Shown one piece after another: positions 989 through 11,631 of a stretch of 64,000 nucleotides of DNA. The notes under the pieces are model-generated. The model did no database searches. It was given only the letters and a program-made list of their open reading frames with translations, and was not told the origin of the DNA. Position 1 is the stretch's first letter; each line of letters starts with the position of its first letter. Position numbers and translations under genes: made by a program. Source of the DNA: an uncultured Nitrososphaerota archaeon (lineage in GTDB: Archaea > Thermoproteota > EX4484-205 > JAAOZO01); NCBI GenBank assembly GCA_964408285.1, contig CAYOYV010000001.1, forward strand, positions 1 through 64,000, given 5' to 3'.

Positions 989-1142
989 GCCGATCCAACA
1001 CTACTATCCCCAGCGGACCATACGCATTGGTGACAAGTACTCTTTGAATATGGGTGACAAAGCGAGTTCGCATGGTGGCTGCTTTGAATCGCTTCGGGCG
1101 CAGTGGCAATAGATATAAGTGACTTTGAGCCGATTATCGTGG

Positions 1143-2147
1143 ATGGCGATTCCCACAAGATATCTGATAGAGAGGTCAGTAATATTCGTTCTGACGATTC
1201 TTGTCTCGATAACTGTAATATTCATTATTCCACGCTTTACTCCCGGCGATCCTCTCGGCGTGGTCGTCGCGAGGCTCTCAGAGATGGGAGGACTTCGAGG
1301 GGCCGAAGAGATGGTGGAGGAGTACAAGCGGCTGTTCGGGCTGAACGAGGACATACTAACGCAATATTTCTCCTACATGCGAGAGGTCCTCCGCGGAAAT
1401 CTGGGCTATTCCATAGTGCACTTTCCCACTACGGTCTCTGATCTGATCCTTCGGGCCCTTCCTTGGACCTTCTGCTTGCTAGCCACCACAACTGTCCTCA
1501 GCTGGATGATCGGTACCCTTTTGGGGGCGCTCGCTGGATGGGCAGGAGAATCGAAGATTCAGAGTATTTTCGCCTCAGCGGCGCTCTTCCTATATGTTGT
1601 TCCCTACTACATATTTGCCGTTATGTTGGTTTTCCTGTTTGCATTCACATTGAGATGGCTGCCTCCTTCAGGAGGTTATACCGCAGGATTGGTACCTTCG
1701 TTTACACTGGATTTCGCCATCGATGTTATCCAGCACTCAATACTCCCCGCGTCTACTATCATACTCTCGTCCCTCGGATGGTGGTTCCTGAGCATGAGGT
1801 CGATGATAACAACTGTCAAGGGGGAGGACTTTCTCCTGATGGCGGAAGCGAAGGGTCTGCAAAAAAGTCACATCCTCTGGAGATATGCCTTCAGAAATGC
1901 CATTCTGCCGCAGGTCACTGGCCTAGCCATCTCCCTGAGCCGCATAGTCGGCGGGGCACTCATAACGGAAGTAATATTCGCCTATCCTGGGATTGGATCC
2001 TTAACAACTAGTGCCATAATGTCTCTCGATTACCCGCTAATCCAAGGGACTGTATTGCTCATCATCTTGTCTGTAGCCACGGCCAATTTCGCGATCGAGA
2101 TTGTCTACCCGCTCATAGATCCAAGAATCAGAGCCGGGAGGGAATGA
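1143..2147 (+). CDS. dppB: Dipeptide/oligopeptide/oligosaccharide ABC transporter permease
   Basis: PGDP N-terminal motif, GNLGYS, EAA loop (AEAKGL...YAFRNA), ITEVIFAYPGIG, LIDPRIR C-terminus. Start moved to ATG 1143, about 25 nt after TATA-like GATATAAG. Confidence 0.93.
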   Translation: MAIPTRYLIERSVIFVLTILVSITVIFIIPRFTPGDPLGVVVARLSEMGGLRGAEEMVEEYKRLFGLNEDILTQYFSYMREVLRGNLGYSIVHFPTTVSDLILRALPWTFCLLATTTVLSWMIGTLLGALAGWAGESKIQSIFASAALFLYVVPYYIFAVMLVFLFAFTLRWLPPSGGYTAGLVPSFTLDFAIDVIQHSILPASTIILSSLGWWFLSMRSMITTVKGEDFLLMAEAKGLQKSHILWRYAFRNAILPQVTGLAISLSRIVGGALITEVIFAYPGIGSLTTSAIMSLDYPLIQGTVLLIILSVATANFAIEIVYPLIDPRIRAGRE

Positions 2148-3028
2148 CATTGAAGACCACATTCTCGGGGAGACTTGCGGCCAGCTTGGCGAGTATATTG
2201 AAAGCTCCATTCGGCAATCGGAACTTCACTGTGGGTTTTGCCATGTTCGTCATATTGATAGCGATCCCCTTGCTTGGAGGGCTTTTGTCATCGCCTGAAC
2301 TCATTCGCGTGGGTCACTCCTCGCCTGCACTGCCTCCGACCCTAGATCATTTGCTGGGGACGGATGTCCTCGGCAGAGACATCTTGGTCCAGCTCTTCAG
2401 AGCTACGCTAAATTCACTCAAGATAGGCCTGATTGCGGCTACAATAGGAACCGCTGTTGGTGCTGTAATAGGCTTTGTCAGCGGGTATTATGGCGGCATC
2501 ACAGATGACATGCTTAGAATACTCACAGATGTCTTCCTCTCAATTCCATCGCTGATGTTCTTGGTACTGATATCCGCGCTTGTCAGAGTTGTGACGGTTG
2601 AGACAATGGCCATGATCATAGCGATATTCGCTTGGGCCTGGCCTGCGAGACAGGTAAGGGCTCAGGCATTGAGCCTGAAAGAACGGGAGTTTGTATATAT
2701 GGCGAAGCTTTCAGGAATGGGCAGTTTCGAACTGATAGTGAGAGAGCTCATGCCTCATATGCTCCAGTGGATGATTGCCAACTTCGTTAATGCTTTCCTA
2801 TCAGCTATCCTGACGGAGTCTGGCTTGTCAATACTGGGCCTTGGACCCCAGATCGATATGACCCTTGGTATGATGCTCTGGTGGGCCCTCAATAGTGCTG
2901 CGATGTATAGGGGGTTATGGTGGTGGTGGGGGGCGCCAGTCTTTGTCCTGATATTTTCGTTCTTTTCTTTGTATCTGATGCATGCAGGTCTTGATGAAGT
3001 GATCAATCCCAAGTTGAGAGGCAAGTAG
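2144..3028 (+). CDS. dppC: ABC transporter permease
   Basis: HLLGTDVLGRD motif, ESGLSILGLG, WWW...P, NPKLR ending; 4-nt ATGA overlap with the upstream gene. Confidence 0.93.
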   Translation: MTLKTTFSGRLAASLASILKAPFGNRNFTVGFAMFVILIAIPLLGGLLSSPELIRVGHSSPALPPTLDHLLGTDVLGRDILVQLFRATLNSLKIGLIAATIGTAVGAVIGFVSGYYGGITDDMLRILTDVFLSIPSLMFLVLISALVRVVTVETMAMIIAIFAWAWPARQVRAQALSLKEREFVYMAKLSGMGSFELIVRELMPHMLQWMIANFVNAFLSAILTESGLSILGLGPQIDMTLGMMLWWALNSAAMYRGLWWWWGAPVFVLIFSFFSLYLMHAGLDEVINPKLRGK

Positions 3029-3029
3029 G

Positions 3030-3995
3030 ATGTCCGATCAGATTCTCGAAATCAGAAACCTAACCGCCTATTATGAAGTAGGACCGAATCCGACAAGGGC
3101 TGTGGATAATGCAAGTCTAGGAACAATAAGAAGGGGAGAGATATTCGGGATTGCAGGTGAATCTGCTTGCGGCAAGACGACACTTGCGTTGGCCATGCTG
3201 AGGCTCCTCAAACCGCCCGGGCACATAAGGAGGGGGGAAGTGATATTCGACGGTACCGACCTGCTCAAGCTCGCAGAAGAGGAAATAAGGTCGATTAGGT
3301 GGAAGAGGATTTCTTATGTTCCTCAGAGTTCGATGAACGCTCTGAATCCTGTGATGAGAATAAGGAACCAGATATCCGACAGCATAGAGGCCCACGAGAG
3401 TGGGCAGTCGAAAGATGAATTGGATAATCGGATAGAGAAGCTGCTGATGACCGTAGGGCTATCGCGCGAAATCGCCGGAATGTATCCACATGAGCTCAGT
3501 GGGGGGATGAAACAGAGGGTTGCAATCGCGATGGCGACGGCCTTGGATCCTGAAATCCTCATAGCAGATGAGCCCACGACAGCTCTGGATGTCATTGTCC
3601 AGAGAGGTATACTGCAACTACTCGGCGAGATTAGGCGTAGAATGCACACTATCGTATTGATAACTCATGATATGGCAGCACAGGCAGAAATCTCGGATAG
3701 AGTGGGAATAATGTATGCGGGGAAAATGATGGAGATTGGAAGAACCGAGGACGTATTCAAGGATCCGCTACATCCGTATACCCGCCTGCTCATATCATCC
3801 ATACCGCGGCTGAAGATCAGGACAGAGCTTGCGTGGATCACAGGATTGCCTCCTGACCTAAGAAACCCACCGCTCGGTTGTCGATTCCACCCGAGATGTC
3901 CACATCTAATGGCGGGAAAATGCGATGTCGAGGAGCCTCAACTTGCCGAGATCAAGCCTGGCAGACTAACGGCTTGCCACTTGCATGGTGAATGA
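3030..3995 (+). CDS. dppD: ABC transporter ATP-binding protein
   Basis: Walker A GESACGKT, signature LSGGMKQR, Walker B ILIADEPT, HPYT and C-terminal GCRFHPRC...C...ACH domain. Confidence 0.95.
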   Translation: MSDQILEIRNLTAYYEVGPNPTRAVDNASLGTIRRGEIFGIAGESACGKTTLALAMLRLLKPPGHIRRGEVIFDGTDLLKLAEEEIRSIRWKRISYVPQSSMNALNPVMRIRNQISDSIEAHESGQSKDELDNRIEKLLMTVGLSREIAGMYPHELSGGMKQRVAIAMATALDPEILIADEPTTALDVIVQRGILQLLGEIRRRMHTIVLITHDMAAQAEISDRVGIMYAGKMMEIGRTEDVFKDPLHPYTRLLISSIPRLKIRTELAWITGLPPDLRNPPLGCRFHPRCPHLMAGKCDVEEPQLAEIKPGRLTACHLHGE

Positions 3996-4975
3996 TCGTG
4001 AGCAACCCCAAGAACCTGTTGGAAGTAAGACATCTGACAAGAGTCTTTAGAATGGGCGGATTCATGGGAAAAGGAGAGCTGGTGGCTGTGGACGATGTTT
4101 CGTTCGATGTGCCTGCTGAAAGACCCGTAATACTTACAATCGCGGGCGAGAGTGGAAGCGGCAAAACGACAACGGCCAGAATGATCCTAGGCTTCGTAAA
4201 ACCAACCCATGGCGAAGTTCTCTACCGAGGCAAGAACATACTGAATATGAATAACAGCGATTGGAAAATGTATAGACAGGAAGTACAAGCGATTTTCCAA
4301 GACCCCTACGGGGCATTCAACTCGATGTATACGGTGGATCATGTTCTGAAAGTGCCGATAGAGAAGTTCAACTTGGCCAGGACGGATGAGGACGCTCACC
4401 AATTGATGTCAGGAACCCTTGAAGTAGTCGGACTGAGATCAGAGGAAATACTTGGGAAATATCCCCATCAACTAAGTGGAGGACAGAGACAGAGGATAAT
4501 GCTTGCGAGAGCATTCCTCCTGAGACCGAAAATAGTAGTGGCTGATGAGCCAGTTTCGATGCTAGATGCTTCAATGAGGGCAGGGATTCTGCATTTGATG
4601 CTAGATTTGAAGAAGAAATGGGACGTGTCATTTCTGTACATCACCCATGATCTTTCGACGGCCCATTACATCAGTGATTCAATCGCAATAATGTATCAAG
4701 GAAGTGTGGTGGAAATGGGACCAATAGACGAAGTGATCGAGAATCCATTGCATCCATATTCCAAGCTGCTGATAGAGTCAGTTCCGATACCTGACCCGGA
4801 ACAAAGATGGAAAGAGCACATGGACCTGCCAACCAGGGAGTTTCGAAGCCAGACATTCAACGGATGCAAATTCTATGATAGATGCAAGTTCAGAACCGAT
4901 GTGTGCAAGACAGATAGACCAGGGCTTAAACCAAACGAGTCAAGGTTCGTTGCATGTCATTTGTATCATGATTGA
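3992..4975 (+). CDS. dppF: ABC transporter ATP-binding protein
   Basis: GESGSGKT, LSGGQRQR, VADEPVSMLD, HPYS and C-terminal GCKFYDRC...C...ACH domain. Confidence 0.95.
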   Translation: MIVSNPKNLLEVRHLTRVFRMGGFMGKGELVAVDDVSFDVPAERPVILTIAGESGSGKTTTARMILGFVKPTHGEVLYRGKNILNMNNSDWKMYRQEVQAIFQDPYGAFNSMYTVDHVLKVPIEKFNLARTDEDAHQLMSGTLEVVGLRSEEILGKYPHQLSGGQRQRIMLARAFLLRPKIVVADEPVSMLDASMRAGILHLMLDLKKKWDVSFLYITHDLSTAHYISDSIAIMYQGSVVEMGPIDEVIENPLHPYSKLLIESVPIPDPEQRWKEHMDLPTREFRSQTFNGCKFYDRCKFRTDVCKTDRPGLKPNESRFVACHLYHD

Positions 4976-5103: not shown

Positions 5104-7269
5104 ATGAAGAAAATAATCTCCATTCTTATCTCACTTGTGTTCGTCCTAATGTTCTTCAATATACCGACTGCGATATCACCACCTCTTCCTAGGGACGAGA
5201 CGTTCTACTTTGTACGCGGCCTAGGCAGTGGGTATGCCAATTTCGCTATGCTTAATCTATACGCGCCGGGTGCGCCTTCGAGATCGGGGACCGGCATGCA
5301 ACAGAATATTTGGGAATATTTCTCCTACTGGAACTATGAGACAGGAGAAGACGTGATGTGGCTTGCGCAGAAATATGAGTATTCGGCGGATTTCAAGAGC
5401 ATCACGGTATATCTGACAAAGGGCGTAAAATGGAACGATGGACATTCGTTCACAGCGGACGACGTTGTGTTCACGTACAACATGCTCCTACAAAATGCGC
5501 CAAAATTGTCTGGTTCAGCTGCTGTCGCAGCGGATGTCGATTCGGTCACAAAGATAGACGATTACACAGTCCGAATTAATCTAAAGGCCGCGAACCCAAG
5601 GTTCCATCTCAACAGGGATACATTTCCTGCAGTCAGAGTTTGGGGAGGCCTAACGATAGTGCCAAAGCACATCTGGGAGGGCAAGGACCCTGTGACGTTT
5701 ACCAACTATCCGAACCCAATCGGAACTGGACCTTACAAGCTGGTTAGCGCGGCTCAGACCGCGGCTGTCTTCGAACGCAGAGACGATTGGTGGGCGACGG
5801 AAAAGTATGGAATAAGACCAGCACCCAAGTATGTCGTCTTTGAGACCCTTGGCACCGAGGAAACCCTTGCTGCCGCTTTGGCATCCAACGATGTTGACGC
5901 AGTGAACATAGGGTTGCTTTCCTTTGGCACCTATCTGACTGTTCAACAGAGAAACCCATACGTGACAGCTTGGTACAAAGCGGCTCCCTATGCATGGAAA
6001 GATCCTTGCCCGAGGGTACTTTTCGTTCAGAATGCGAAGTATCCTTGGAACGACCCGCAGGTTAGGAGAGCAATCTCGTATCTGGTCAACAGAACAGCAA
6101 TCGCTACCATAGCATACGATCGCACCACGGTGGCCACTCCATACATCTTCCCGGCGTACGGAGGATACCAAGAATATTTCGACGGGATATCGAACCTTAT
6201 CACGCAGTACGAGCCGACGAAATATGACCCAACGAAGGCAAAAACGATATTCGAATCCCTCGGTTTCAAGAAGGGATCTGACGGTGTTTGGGTCACTGGA
6301 AATGGCACAAGACTTGCAATGCTCTACGTAGTCAGTTCAGACACGAACACCGTGGAGCAGAGGAGAGTATCAGAAGTTCTAGCGGATCAACTCAGAACAG
6401 GAGGAATGGATGTCACCGTCAAGTTCCTGGCAGGCGCGGTATTCACCGAGACCCTCAACAAAGGTGATTGGGACATCTTCTACGGCTGGCAGTGTCCGGG
6501 CGACACAGATCCCTTCTTCAATCTGAACCTGTATCAGAGCAAATATACAAAGCCACTTGGCCAAGCAGTAGCGAGTTGGGAGTATAATGGCTGGAGATAC
6601 ATAAATCCGGCATACGACGCAATAGTCACCAAGCTGGGGGCAACGTCACCTCTGCTAAACAAAACCGGGTCACTAGCTCTCTTCAAACAAGCTATGGCAA
6701 TCTACTACGCGGATCTACCCAGCATACCGATGGTTCAAGCGCCTGCCTTTGTACCGGTGAACACATTCCAGTGGACTGGCTGGCCGACAGCCGAGAACCC
6801 CTGGATAATGCCAGTTCCCTGGTGGGCACAATTGACCCTCATCATGAACGGATTCAATTCGAGTAAGACAGGAGGATGGGTTGGCGGGATAAGGCTGAAA
6901 ACCGTGGACTATGCGACTGTCTACTTCACAAAGGCAACGCCGATCTTCAGAGGTATCGACCTGAGTTGGTATGGTCCCTTCAAGGCTGGGGATTCCCAGA
7001 GGATACCCGCAGATGATGCAGAGTTCTACATAACGAAAGGTCTTGCTTCATACTCGCCCCCTGCGCCAGTGTTCCCTGAACTTGCGACGATCGCTCAAAC
7101 CGTGTCGGGCATTAGAACTGATCTCACAGACGTAAAGTCGAGCGTAGATAAGCTAAAGACTGATGTGTCTGGGATATCCGGAAGTGTTTCCATACTCTAC
7201 CTGGTCGTTGTGCTGGAAGCCATCGCGATATTAGCGCTCGCGTTGCTCTTGTTCAGGAAAAAGTCCTGA
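5104..7269 (+). CDS. dppA: Family 5 extracellular solute-binding protein (probably oligosaccharide-binding subgroup) with a C-terminal extension and TM anchor
   Basis: Signal peptide; KWNDGHSFTADDVVFT, PIGTGPYKL and PWNDPQVRRAIS motifs; C-terminal coiled coil plus hydrophobic helix ending FRKKS. Confidence 0.9.
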   Translation: MKKIISILISLVFVLMFFNIPTAISPPLPRDETFYFVRGLGSGYANFAMLNLYAPGAPSRSGTGMQQNIWEYFSYWNYETGEDVMWLAQKYEYSADFKSITVYLTKGVKWNDGHSFTADDVVFTYNMLLQNAPKLSGSAAVAADVDSVTKIDDYTVRINLKAANPRFHLNRDTFPAVRVWGGLTIVPKHIWEGKDPVTFTNYPNPIGTGPYKLVSAAQTAAVFERRDDWWATEKYGIRPAPKYVVFETLGTEETLAAALASNDVDAVNIGLLSFGTYLTVQQRNPYVTAWYKAAPYAWKDPCPRVLFVQNAKYPWNDPQVRRAISYLVNRTAIATIAYDRTTVATPYIFPAYGGYQEYFDGISNLITQYEPTKYDPTKAKTIFESLGFKKGSDGVWVTGNGTRLAMLYVVSSDTNTVEQRRVSEVLADQLRTGGMDVTVKFLAGAVFTETLNKGDWDIFYGWQCPGDTDPFFNLNLYQSKYTKPLGQAVASWEYNGWRYINPAYDAIVTKLGATSPLLNKTGSLALFKQAMAIYYADLPSIPMVQAPAFVPVNTFQWTGWPTAENPWIMPVPWWAQLTLIMNGFNSSKTGGWVGGIRLKTVDYATVYFTKATPIFRGIDLSWYGPFKAGDSQRIPADDAEFYITKGLASYSPPAPVFPELATIAQTVSGIRTDLTDVKSSVDKLKTDVSGISGSVSILYLVVVLEAIAILALALLLFRKKS

Positions 7270-7345: not shown

Positions 7346-8575
7346 TCAGACCAAGCCAGAGAAAAGAAGGAACGATCCCAAACTTATGATCGCCAGGGCC
7401 CACGCTAGCTTGATCTGTCTGTCCAAAGAGCGTGAGCACTTTATCGATGAGTATTCGATTATCTCGTTGTAGTAGAATTTGCGCGATGCAAAAAAGCAGA
7501 GGACAATCAAAGGGAATGTGAAAGCAACGTTGTACACGAGCAGATATATGAAACCTTGCAAGAAACCTGCCTGTTGGGCCAATATTCCTGTGATAGCGAT
7601 GTAGATAGCTCCTGTGCATGGAAACTCGAAGACGCCCACTAGCGAACCTGCTATGAACGCAGAGGGAATGGTGAGCTTGTTCATCCAGCTTTTGACTGTT
7701 TCCACACCAGAGTCTGATATCACAAGGCTAGGCCCCTTCCCATGAAAGAAGTAATCCTTCAAGCTAATTGCTCCCAAGACAATCACTAGTAGAGCGGCGA
7801 TTTTTCCAATGAAATGAGGAAACGGAGCAATGGGCATTATGGTTATCAGGCCTAGTCCTATCATCAGGTACGCGAGGTATACCCCAATGATGTAGACTAA
7901 ACCCGTTATCAGAACCTTCTGTCTGCTTCTCTCCAACGATGTCTCGCTCATTGCAAAGATGAAGGAAACGAAGAACAACAGAAGCGAGAATGCGCAAGGG
8001 TTAATTCCATCCAAGAGTCCGCCGACTACAACTAGCGGCAAAACCGATCCCGTGCTGGACGATAATAGGCCAACATCGCCGATGCATTCCGAAATGGAGT
8101 TCTTTATGTCGCATTCCTTGATGTGTCGGGACTCGTCCATCACTACGTACAGCTCACGCAATAAGTCCCTGTAGACAACAAGCTTTGGGTACTCTTCCGA
8201 ATGCCTCGCCAAGAAATCGATTATGAGTTCCACGGGGACAAAATTGACGAAAAGGAATTTGCCATCTACATCCACTACTACTTGGAGTCCTCGCATTGAT
8301 TTCGGAACACCGAATTCCTGATAGAGCAGATCCAGTTCCTGGGTCTGATCCGGGCTGAGGTACCTCACTTCTATTTCGGTAATGCCTAGCCTTTTGAGTG
8401 AGCTCTTGAGATCGAGAATATACGGCGTGAAGGGATCGATCCCCCATTGCTCGGAGCATGACGGACATGAAGTCACATATACAATCGCCCTCATTGCTGA
8501 AGCCGAAGATGTGAGGACGGCGGCAGATGCGATGAACGCGACTGCTGCGACTAGATAGAGCCGCTTAGAGATCAC
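7346..8575 (-). CDS. ccdA: Cytochrome c biogenesis CcdA/DsbD-family membrane electron transporter with an N-terminal thioredoxin-like CxxC domain
   Basis: Signal peptide, CPSC motif, then multi-TM domain carrying DGINPCAF and EFPCTG cysteine motifs. Confidence 0.8.
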   Translation of the reverse strand: MISKRLYLVAAVAFIASAAVLTSSASAMRAIVYVTSCPSCSEQWGIDPFTPYILDLKSSLKRLGITEIEVRYLSPDQTQELDLLYQEFGVPKSMRGLQVVVDVDGKFLFVNFVPVELIIDFLARHSEEYPKLVVYRDLLRELYVVMDESRHIKECDIKNSISECIGDVGLLSSSTGSVLPLVVVGGLLDGINPCAFSLLLFFVSFIFAMSETSLERSRQKVLITGLVYIIGVYLAYLMIGLGLITIMPIAPFPHFIGKIAALLVIVLGAISLKDYFFHGKGPSLVISDSGVETVKSWMNKLTIPSAFIAGSLVGVFEFPCTGAIYIAITGILAQQAGFLQGFIYLLVYNVAFTFPLIVLCFFASRKFYYNEIIEYSSIKCSRSLDRQIKLAWALAIISLGSFLLFSGLV

Positions 8576-9487: not shown

Positions 9488-10984
9488 ATGAAAGAATATG
9501 TACTTGTCATTGAACTCACTACGGTCGCGATTCACTCTCGTCTTGTCTCTACTTCGGGGACAATAGTGCATTCGTCGACCCGTCCGCTGGAGACCCTCCT
9601 GCCCTCGCCCGAAAGACCCTACATTGTGGAACTTGATCCGGCTAGACTTTGGTCGTCGATACGCAGCACAGTGACTGATTGCGTGAAACGGGCAAAAGGA
9701 GGGAAAATCCTTGCGATCACGACTGCAGGACAGAGATTCACCACCGCCATGATAGATGATGAAGGAGGCACCTCTGTTCTTTGTCCGAACATGGATGCAA
9801 GGGGGGCGGAGGTTGAAGATCTAGCGATCGGCACATTGGGAGAAAAAGCATATCAAATCACTGGGCTCCACCCGTCATTCCTGTTTTCCTTTGACAGGCT
9901 TAGGTGGTTTGTGTCGAATTATCCGAAAGTGATTGAGGGAATGAAGTATCTGGCTACGATCGATGGTTGGATCTACTTCAAGCTCACTGGAGCACCGGCA
10001 GAGGAACCGTCGCAGGCAGCCGGAACTTTCTTGTTCGACATACGCTCAAGGCACTGGAGCGAGGAAATGTGCAGCGTTGCGCACATCGATCCTAGCAAGT
10101 TGCCCAATGTGTCCGCCTTCGGTGAGCTCGTGGGCTATCCAACCGAAAAGCTTCAAGCTTCGACTGGCATATCACCCAGGACGCAAGTGATCATGGGCGC
10201 TGGCGACACCCATTGTTCGGGCATAGGATCCTCAGCACTATCGCCTGGACAAGCCTATGTCTCGCTGGGTTCTACCGCTCCCCTGCACGTGGTGATGTCA
10301 GACCCCCGGATCGATCAAGAGAAGCGCATGTGGACAGGCTGCTTCCCACTCGAAGGCCAGTGGGTGCTCGAGAGCAACTCTGGCGTGTGCGGCACCGTCT
10401 TCGATTGGCTAGCTACTTCTGTCCTGCAGATCATGAGGCGAGGGCGCTCGGACTACAGGCGCTTTGACAGGCTTGCTAAGTCGGCCTCAAGGGGCTCCGG
10501 AGATGTCGCTGCGTTCTTGGGCCCCTCGATAATGGATGCTCGAGCTTTCACGCAAGTGTCGCCAGCTGCAATAGTGATGCCGTCGCTGGTTGCAGGAAGA
10601 AGACCTGCTGCCCCCGAGATAGCAAGGGCCTGCTACGAGGACATCGCTTTTGCCTGCAAGGGCAATCTCGAACAGATGAATGAAGTCTGGCATGAGATTG
10701 AACCCAACTTCAGGGCTGCGGGAGGCCTGTCCAATAGTGAAGTCTTGATTCAGATATTGGCTGATGTGCTTTCGAGGCCAATAGTTATCCCGGTTGAGCG
10801 GCGAGCCAGCGCGATCGGGGCTTCTGTTGCGTGCTGGAGCTTCCTCAGATCAGAAAAGCCCGTCGATGTGGTCAAGGACATAGTCAAGGAGAAGGTCGTT
10901 ACGCCATCCCAAGAATCTGATGCGTATCAGGCTGACTACAGAAGATGGAGGCTTATATATAGCAGACTGGGAAGCCTAGTCTAA
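9488..10984 (+). CDS. FGGY-family carbohydrate kinase (xylulokinase/LsrK-like)
   Basis: N-terminal YVLVIELTT, GQRFT, DARG, GAGDTHCSGIG, SLGST and AGGLSNS motifs. Confidence 0.88.
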   Translation: MKEYVLVIELTTVAIHSRLVSTSGTIVHSSTRPLETLLPSPERPYIVELDPARLWSSIRSTVTDCVKRAKGGKILAITTAGQRFTTAMIDDEGGTSVLCPNMDARGAEVEDLAIGTLGEKAYQITGLHPSFLFSFDRLRWFVSNYPKVIEGMKYLATIDGWIYFKLTGAPAEEPSQAAGTFLFDIRSRHWSEEMCSVAHIDPSKLPNVSAFGELVGYPTEKLQASTGISPRTQVIMGAGDTHCSGIGSSALSPGQAYVSLGSTAPLHVVMSDPRIDQEKRMWTGCFPLEGQWVLESNSGVCGTVFDWLATSVLQIMRRGRSDYRRFDRLAKSASRGSGDVAAFLGPSIMDARAFTQVSPAAIVMPSLVAGRRPAAPEIARACYEDIAFACKGNLEQMNEVWHEIEPNFRAAGGLSNSEVLIQILADVLSRPIVIPVERRASAIGASVACWSFLRSEKPVDVVKDIVKEKVVTPSQESDAYQADYRRWRLIYSRLGSLV

Positions 10985-10986
10985 CG

Positions 10987-11631
10987 ATGACCTCCTTGAA
11001 ATCAATGAGAGAGAAAGTCGCCGCCACGATGAGGAGGCTCTATGGCATTGCATACGTGCTGCAGAACGAGGGAAATGTCAGCTCTAGGACTTCAATCTTG
11101 GATAGGTACGTCATAACCCCAAGTCAGGTCCCTCGATATATGATCAAATCAAGTGATATCCTAGTGATCAATGGGAAGGGCGACGTAATCGAAGGTAAGA
11201 GGAATCCTTCAGTCGAGACCGGAATGCACCTCCAGATTTATTCCAAAAGGTCTGATGTCAGTGCCGTGATACACTTTCACTCGCTTTATGCAACCGCATT
11301 GGCATCGCTTCATGAGACAATACCCCCCTTTCTAGAGGAAACGATCCCGTTCTTGGGAGAGAACGTTCCGACGGTCGAATATGCCATGGCTGGGACTGAG
11401 GAGCTGGCCTCAAACGTTGCCACTGGGCTTTCCAATAGGAATGCAGTGTTGCTTGCCAATCATGGCGCAGTCGTATGTGGCAAGGACCTTCGGGACTCAT
11501 TTCACAAGGCATTGCTTCTTGAGAAGGCCGCAAGGGTGTATTTGCTTGCGAAAAGCATCGGAACTCCAAAAACACTCCCCGAATCCTCAGTTGAGATGGG
11601 TAAGGAGCTTTTCAGAACCATGTCGCTCTAG
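10987..11631 (+). CDS. Class II aldolase/adducin family protein (L-fuculose-phosphate aldolase-like)
   Basis: EGNVSSR, ITPS, PSVETGMH, AVIHFHS and LLANHG Zn-binding motifs. Confidence 0.9.
   Translation: MTSLKSMREKVAATMRRLYGIAYVLQNEGNVSSRTSILDRYVITPSQVPRYMIKSSDILVINGKGDVIEGKRNPSVETGMHLQIYSKRSDVSAVIHFHSLYATALASLHETIPPFLEETIPFLGENVPTVEYAMAGTEELASNVATGLSNRNAVLLANHGAVVCGKDLRDSFHKALLLEKAARVYLLAKSIGTPKTLPESSVEMGKELFRTMSL

Follow-up and report, generated by a model that had tools for sequence, protein, structure and literature searches.

A Gins51 B-domain-like module in the stalk of a membrane-anchored archaeal family-5 solute-binding protein

How does a domain best known from the archaeal replisome come to stand on the outside of a cell, and what might it do there? 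The question is raised by a gene in a 64,000-nucleotide stretch of DNA from an uncultured Nitrososphaerota archaeon (assembly GCA_964408285.1, contig CAYOYV010000001.1, positions 1 to 64,000; this whole stretch is referred to as the window), which encodes a stalked, C-terminally anchored solute-binding protein of family 5 (5104..7269, + strand; an open reading frame (ORF) of 721 amino acids (aa) plus stop codon). Behind its binding body the protein has a small module, residues 600-651 (6901..7056, +), which a first-pass annotation had described, at 6901..7053, as similar to the C-terminal B domain of the GINS subunit Gins51 and as set between the family-5 body and a proline hinge, a coiled coil and a transmembrane (TM) anchor. 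The underlying translation is exact, and the parts follow one another as described there. The module is a true homologue of the Gins51 B domain (hereafter Gins51C), a conclusion that we accept because four lines of evidence agree: a forward profile search, a reverse profile search, a profile-profile comparison and the fold.

In the forward direction, the Pfam family Gins51_C (PF22090) matches residues 606-648 of the 721-aa protein, scoring 26.7 bits on the whole protein, marginally below the gathering cut-off of 27 bits, 29.7 bits on the 139-aa tail alone, above that cut-off, and, when the genome was searched in six frames, 31.6 bits. A precomputed PF22090 match is also found on 22 of 27 homologues retrieved with the tail as query. 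In the reverse direction, a profile (A3) made from 45 aligned binding-protein modules, taken from the window protein and the loci fetched for comparison, reached 521 of 1.84 billion representative proteins at E ≤ 1e-3 and 60 at E ≤ 1e-10. Pfam was run on 147 of the best 150 matches, the remaining three (P0002, P0019 and P0026) being already-known binding proteins; 57 of the 147 carry SBP_bac_5, and six (P0130, P0146, P0157, P0159, P0160 and P0165; E ~1e-7) are genuine Gins51 proteins, with an Sld5 A domain as well as Gins51_C. When A3 is compared by hhalign with 20 Gins51-size proteins, including that of the source genome itself, the probability is 99.5% (E 3.8e-22, 53 columns) and the match falls on the last 53 positions of the Gins51 alignment; this Gins51 set (A5) was picked from module-profile matches and so leans to the most similar Gins51, a bias that tells against the comparison. 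The module, about 50 residues long, has the core sequence pattern YGPF...GD...P...A...G.A in common with Gins51C. Sequence searches of Protein Data Bank (PDB) chains gave a weak Gins51 match (E 0.98 with the single tail, E 0.054 with profile A2). Matches to BRCA1 BRCT chains at E ~1, which contain an FRG..YGPF-like string, were judged to be chance, and P0072, a protein with TSP1 repeats matched in six short stretches (Gins51_C E 2.5e-4, no stretch passing), was set aside as low complexity or chance. A homology search with the 62-aa module among longer proteins, in which 16 candidates were scored, brought up no new architecture.

The fold points the same way. An AlphaFold2 (AF2) model of the module built from A3 has a predicted local distance difference test (pLDDT) value of 91.7 and a predicted template modelling (pTM) score of 0.75. 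The Foldseek comparison that the first-pass annotation had suggested puts Thermococcus kodakarensis Gins51 in the top four places (chains 5ghs_D, 3anw_A, 5ghr_D and 5ghr_B; E 4.5e-4 to 1.1e-2, probability 1.00), followed by eukaryotic and Saccharolobus GINS subunits. The VIA search, which is independent of Foldseek, returns 3anw_A at Z 8.9 and 5ghr_B at Z 8.8 (root-mean-square deviation 1.5 Å, 52/55 residues, 27% identity); the next matches, at Z 6.1, are again GINS subunits (eukaryotic Psf2 and S. solfataricus GINS, Z 6.0-6.1), and Gins51 leads all other folds by 2.7 Z units. Lower in the list are the C-domain of lambda gpFI (Z 5.8), residues 265-326 of the primase small subunit PriS (1zt2_A, Z 5.6) and ribosomal bL9 N-domains (Z ~4-5). 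The proposed relation to the B domain thus holds for Gins51, whereas its extension to the C-terminal domain (CTD) of PriS is weak. The PriS CTD and the GINS B domains do have the same small fold of a beta-sheet and one helix (Swiatek and MacNeill 2010, PMC2861644), yet the sequence link of the module to the PriS CTD is much weaker than that to Gins51: the PriS of the same genome, the only one compared, gives an hhalign probability of 0.8% (E 0.068, not significant).

The source genome (1.82 Mb in 46 contigs, 93.7% complete) has a separate, canonical gins51 gene next to priS. Its Gins51 scores 36.2 bits at C8:39976-40116 (-) and lies in a 217-aa ORF adjoining a 360-aa PriS-like ORF (G000:C8 = L001:1489-3106, -). 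The longest predicted ORFs of the two genes overlap, and the C-terminus of the PriS-like protein has the same GP(Y/F) motif and helix pattern. Because this gins51 and the module share only 35% identity over 31 residues, the gene is ruled out as the source of a mis-join. The fusion is also found well beyond this one assembly. A pattern scan of species genomes returned ten loci, of which six are in archaeal metagenome-assembled genomes (MAGs) named as Thermofilaceae, Thermoprotei, Bathyarchaeota or unclassified archaea; the other four, in Streptomyces (L010-L013), match over 16-23 residues only and were dropped as noise. Metagenomes contributed another 59 loci to the same scan. Among the 65 archaeal and metagenomic loci, 51 contain an ORF of 585-804 aa with both ends intact and the module near the C-terminus; in the others the ORF runs off the 5' end of the contig (ten), off its 3' end (one) or is short (three). 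Module-bearing ORFs of at least 650 aa were looked for in 401 genomes sampled evenly across the phylum; 14 have them, the source genome included, none of the five other genomes of the source genome's family does, and about 88 further sampled genomes match with Gins51-size frames only. Within the source genome, one of the four family-5 binding-protein genes has the module, and the closest named relatives of the gene are Thermofilaceae, Thermoprotei and Bathyarchaeota MAGs. With 65 loci spread over many metagenomes and MAGs and 14 genomes out of the 401, this recurrence excludes the assembly chimera that the first-pass annotation had allowed for.

The module is strongly conserved, and it differs from its relative in the replisome in the edge by which the latter is known to bind. 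Among 27 homologues picked by their tails, a biased choice, mean pairwise identity is 0.79 for the module, 0.53 for the body, 0.25 for the coiled coil and 0.27 for the TM helix; among 31 module-bearing homologues picked by the body instead, the values are 0.71, 0.53, 0.25 and 0.28. Of all 52-residue windows along the protein, the highest value in this second set (0.728) belongs to the one that begins at residue 601, slightly above the best body window (0.709), and the module is, narrowly, the best-conserved stretch of the protein. Its invariant or near-invariant residues include R616, D619, W622, R633, D637, D638 and S649; compared with Gins51C, R616, W622, R633, D637, D638 and S649 are extra. 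Gins51C acts as a hook for the heterologous partners GAN and DP1 (PMC5100581, PMC9023282). In T. kodakarensis it hooks the GAN nuclease via beta-strand 4, with D163, M164 and I166, and mutation of D163 or of M164/I166 abolishes GAN binding; M164, I166 and I186 form the hydrophobic triangle of the hook (PMC5100581). In the window protein, sequence and fold alignments give D630, S631, R633 and P653 as the counterparts of D163, M164, I166 and I186. The Asp of the GAN hook is kept, and the hydrophobic residues that contact GAN and the core of GINS are replaced by S, R and P; S631 is A in most relatives, and R633 is nearly invariant. With S631 and R633 in place of M164 and I166, we infer that the contact edge has changed from hydrophobic to polar. 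The module, whose conservation equals that of the core with which its host protein binds ligand, would then represent a natural experiment in re-surfacing a binding edge.

Membership of the Gins51_C domain family stands despite the loss of a role in the GINS complex. The module resembles Gins51C (PF22090; T. kodakarensis 3ANW, 5GHR, 5GHS) in fold and sequence family, and, unlike it, is extracellular, fused behind a solute-binding protein and without the GINS A domain: the Sld5 A domain (PF05916) gave no match in the 721-aa protein at E ≤ 10, the rest of the chain being SBP_bac_5. Sequence and model place the module outside the membrane, since the chain starts with a signal peptide and ends with a TM helix. 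The signal peptide, of Sec type, covers approximately residues 1-25 (5104..5178, +), with a basic N-terminus followed by a hydrophobic helix (model helix 2-18). The TM helix, residues 696-717 (7189..7254, +), is a hydrophobic stretch with a model helix at 699-718, and it is followed by a basic, presumably cytoplasmic end, RKKS, and the stop codon (7255..7269, +), the basic end being kept in relatives. GINS-complex membership is excluded because the A domain is absent and both a signal peptide and a TM anchor are present, and the replaced hydrophobic residues of the GAN hook likewise argue that this is not a GINS subunit; as judged from its sequence, the protein cannot be part of the CMG helicase.

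The tail that contains the module can be set apart cleanly from the rest of the protein. The solute-binding body, approximately residues 26-598 (5179..6897, +), gives a match to SBP_bac_5 (PF00496), the profile of family 5 (cluster C, Opp/Dpp/Nik type), over residues 85-481 (216.7 bits, cut-off 32.4; E 6.7e-64). When the body only (residues 31-560) served as query, 216 proteins were found at E ≤ 1e-30, and those of 700-770 aa carry PF22090, whereas those of 580-620 aa do not. The shorter forms are 45-57% identical to the window protein over the body, and the source names on them are Atribacteria, Bipolaricaulia, Chloroflexota, Thermomicrobiales and Caldilineaceae. In alignment A4, all 11 shorter homologues, five of them from named bacterial MAGs, end a few residues past GEWVGGIRP, at window residue ~598, and the two module-bearing forms continue directly into the first strand of the module. 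Because the junction is exactly where these shorter homologues, several of which are bacterial, come to an end, the aligned sequences mark the tail as an add-on, a discrete addition of ~120 residues joined without a flexible linker, and residue ~598 offers a clean boundary for constructs. The body is nearly as close to shorter, partly bacterial forms (P0182, P0185-P0190, P0194, P0221, P0226 and others) as to archaeal relatives, which beyond the three nearest reach up to 63% identity; this closeness suggests transfer between domains of life. In the full-length AF2 model (pLDDT 87.7, pTM 0.82), residue blocks 591-650 have a pLDDT of 92-95, whereas in the isolated module the first ten residues score 68, and because the value stays high across the junction, the model suggests that the module is rigidly fixed to the body.

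As for what the body binds, its best solved relatives, in sequence and in fold, are mannoside- and cellobiose-binding proteins of Thermotoga and chitooligosaccharide-binding proteins of Vibrio. TM1223, TM1226 and the cellobiose-binding protein of Thermotoga maritima (4PFT, 4PFU, 1VR5, 2O7I) have a like body (for the Opp-family proteins of this species, E 6.5e-47 to 2.2e-40 by sequence and 1e-43 to 5e-41 by Foldseek). Unlike the window protein, they lack any C-terminal module, coil or TM helix, being 540-590 residues long and soluble in the periplasm. Genes for an FGGY-family carbohydrate kinase and a class II aldolase lie at window positions 9488-11631 (+), 2-4 kb downstream of the transporter genes, which fits sugar uptake. 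Because the solved relatives bind oligosaccharides and the kinase and aldolase genes are nearby, an oligosaccharide is probably a likelier ligand than a peptide.

Between the module and the membrane are a Pro-rich hinge, residues 652-659 (7057..7080, +), for which the model has no regular secondary structure at 646-657, and a coil of five heptads, residues 660-695 (7081..7188, +; model helix 658-689). Its 11 a/d positions (660, 663, 667, 670, 674, 677, 681, 684, 688, 691 and 695) are I, L, V, M or F in 83-100% of 38 aligned relatives, and the hydrophobicity spectrum of the coil peaks at a period of 3.5, though its identity is so low; the heptad pattern identifies residues 660-695 as a canonical coiled coil running into the TM helix. 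The first-pass annotation had proposed modelling the protein as an oligomer, and here self-association of the tail passes its controls. Three copies of residues 592-721, modelled with the 38-row alignment, reach a score of 0.66 in three of three runs, against 0.01 for the best of three controls, with at least 92% of contacts in agreement and a partner pLDDT of at least 84. In the calibration, which used two copies and the tool's own alignments, unlike the three-copy job, 20 of 30 proteins solved as pairs reached that mark, as did one of 23 solved as single chains. The confident interface is heptad-spaced over residues 652-719 and includes module residues 601-603, 605, 607, 631-633, 636, 639 and 649-652, of which strand 631-633 is the counterpart of the GAN-binding strand of Gins51C. 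A parallel three-helix stalk with touching modules is supported by these models, not proven.

On this basis we propose, and give it an even chance, that the re-surfaced interaction domain forms a rigid neck on a stalk made of several chains, probably three. The gene product is the binding protein of an Opp-type ATP-binding cassette (ABC) importer, probably for an oligosaccharide, in an archaeon that belongs to the Thermoproteota in the GTDB. To this protein the archaeal lineage added a tail that consists of a Gins51C-derived domain, a Pro hinge, a coiled coil of five heptads and, before the basic end, a TM helix. Several copies, most likely three, would bundle their coiled coils and TM helices into a stalk, and the GINS-like modules, joined without linker to the last strand of each body, would form a neck or collar atop it. 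They would make protein-protein contacts, including contacts through the edge beta-strand equivalent to the GAN-hook strand of Gins51C, and would hold the binding heads at a set height and geometry above the membrane and permease, a role unrelated to DNA replication.

Several observations pull the other way. The oligomer is a model only, calculated for three copies and for the tail without the 570-residue heads, and predictors readily bundle coiled coils and TM helices; the proposed docking of the module on the body, in turn, is read from pLDDT. In another family-5 binding protein of the same genome (L073), a plain poly-Pro linker and a TM helix provide the anchor, and so anchoring as such needs no module. 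The coil is exchanged for a Thr-rich linker and TM helix in L066/L067 and L070/L071, with the module kept, and for a Pro/Thr-rich linker in L050, and a Thermofilum-type form of 646 aa (L008:4237-6174, L057:2237-4174, P0183) ends three residues past the module. This last form has a signal peptide and no obvious anchor, with neither stalk nor TM helix downstream in any frame. Because such variants keep the module without the coil, its role is not tied solely to the coil, and a collar would not be its sole role. Finally, R616, D619, D637 and D638 are outside the predicted self-interface, where they may serve another partner or the body. These last residues, (near-)invariant as they are, lead to the alternative that the module docks the protein to some other partner, for example the periplasmic face of its own permease, the S-layer or its stalk protein, or another surface protein, the coil being a mere tether. 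Docking of this kind, to the S-layer, a permease or a hydrolase, is what the first-pass annotation had suggested. The best-conserved part of the protein is where an interface with a conserved partner would be expected, the ancestral Gins51C is itself a hook for heterologous partners, the variants with Thr-rich linkers retain the module, and the anchorless form could stay on the cell only via an uncleaved signal peptide or via the module. The E that replaces R633 in precisely this form speaks against docking, however, and a linker-free junction of high pLDDT fits a fixed neck better than a free hook; we regard docking as a possible explanation, though not a probable one.

Less likely still is that the module is a passive, stable spacer that lengthens or stiffens the tether without specific binding, as Ig or FN3 domains do. 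Such a part could well be repeated, and two tandem modules do precede the coiled coil in L032/P0009 (L032:3995-4552; the second copy looks more Gins51-like), with two adjacent module matches in ORFs of 827-847 aa in three of the sampled genomes (G025:C28:2642-2962, G197:C31:4009-4335 and G371:C1:93181-93507); the exchange of the coil for Thr- or Pro/Thr-rich linkers (L066, L070, L050) would likewise be that of interchangeable spacer parts. But a spacer does not need invariant charged residues such as R616, D619 and D638, and a true spacer in the same protein, the coil, has an identity of 0.25, against 0.71 for the module and a body mean of 0.53, which makes this role an improbable one. That there is nothing to explain, either because a short motif has arisen by chance or convergence or because a binding-protein gene and a gins51 fragment were joined in assembly, seems to us very remote. 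The whole-protein Pfam score just below the cut-off, the poor E-values of the PDB sequence searches and a small fold that is also like those of the bL9 N-domain and the gpFI C-domain (Z 4-6) are what can be said for chance; set against them are the hhalign match, a reverse profile that reaches genuine Gins51 proteins, and the lead of Gins51 over every other fold. A joining in assembly would in addition have to account for the 65 loci, the 14 of 401 genomes and the low identity of the genome's own gins51.

How does the proposed neck and stalk compare with known systems? The crenarchaeal family-5 binding proteins of S. solfataricus and Aeropyrum pernix have, as reviewed in PMC3387779, the same body, a signal peptide, a C-terminal TM helix and an Opp-type operon. 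The oligopeptide-type proteins described there (SPase I signal) have a glycosylated Ser/Thr stretch before the TM anchor, unlike the window protein, in which the anchor follows a GINS-like domain that is folded, a Pro hinge and a coil that is conserved; Thr-rich linkers of the described crenarchaeal type occur in only some relatives of the window protein (L066, L070). The SlaB-type S-layer stalk of Sulfolobales likewise has a coiled coil that runs into a C-terminal TM helix, and the last 57 positions of the NCBIfam SlaB model match residues 660-720 (E 0.018, 13.9 bits). Membership of SlaB was rejected with 13.9 bits against a cut-off of 700, the general stalk design alone being alike.

The domain common to GINS and PriS was defined in the 2010 article (PMC2861644), in the text of which the terms 'ABC', 'binding protein' and 'extracellular' were not found. 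No published description of a fusion between a binding protein and a GINS domain was found either, in a search that left subscription journals largely outside and leaves absence from print unproven; this agrees, for the literature searched, with the view of the first-pass annotation that the fusion is undescribed. Undescribed is not undetected, however, because PF22090 is already precomputed on 22 of the 27 tail homologues, and the two-domain architecture is in public Pfam annotation. The GINS B domain has so far been treated as replication-specific, common to GINS subunits and PriS, and a clear homologue that stands outside the membrane would make the fold a portable interaction module. For archaeal transport, it points to an undescribed anchoring device composed of folded neck, hinge, coiled coil and TM helix, and raises the possibility that these binding proteins act as stalked oligomers; if true, this would be a new way of tethering or arraying binding proteins in the archaeal pseudo-periplasm. 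In its widest form, that a captured replisome hook domain either gathers binding proteins into oligomers on stalks, probably as trimers, or ties them to some conserved partner at the surface, the idea is a tentative one.

Other homes of the domain are also seen among the A3 matches. Gins51_C is the sole Pfam match in a number of large proteins of 499-1229 aa (P0065, P0069, P0078, P0127, P0129, P0133, P0134, P0139, P0150, P0151, P0152, P0162, P0167 and P0174), some of which have two copies and many of which have poly-Pro stretches and helical C-termini. A TM-like stretch is missing from 13 of these 14, P0152 having a weak N-terminal one, and they may be unrecognised replication or mobile-element proteins. 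Given such large non-GINS proteins, the hook family may be a general archaeal protein-protein connector and not replication-specific. In the two-copy proteins P0039, P0042 and P0110, DUF7210 (PF23843) also matches the module region. A different arrangement is that of P0095 (554 aa), with an N-terminal Gins51_C (65.5 bits) followed by ABC_tran/P-loop matches and a weak GNAT match.

The binding-protein gene is the last gene of an Opp-type ABC operon (1119-4975 for the genes upstream of it), all of which is on the + strand. It is preceded by two permeases of the BPD_transp_1 family (PF00528), at 1119..2147 (E 1.6e-33) and 2144..3028 (E 8.7e-23), and by two ATPases, each with an ABC_tran (PF00005) and an oligo_HPY (PF08352) domain, at 3030..3995 (E 6.5e-27 and 9.6e-20, respectively) and 3992..4975 (E 1e-27 and 2.4e-18, respectively). 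Permease or ATPase homologues also flank 42 of the 65 related loci, within the flanks fetched. Just upstream of the operon, a 167-aa ORF (485-988, +), for which there was no Pfam match, is hydrophobic towards its N-terminus and has, besides, a long and charged helical part with a heptad-like pattern. On the other side, and convergent with the binding-protein gene, a 409-aa membrane protein is encoded at 7346-8575 (-); it has an N-terminal Cys-x-x-Cys and matches DsbD_TM and SfLAP weakly, below threshold, and may be a membrane protein of the thiol-disulfide kind.

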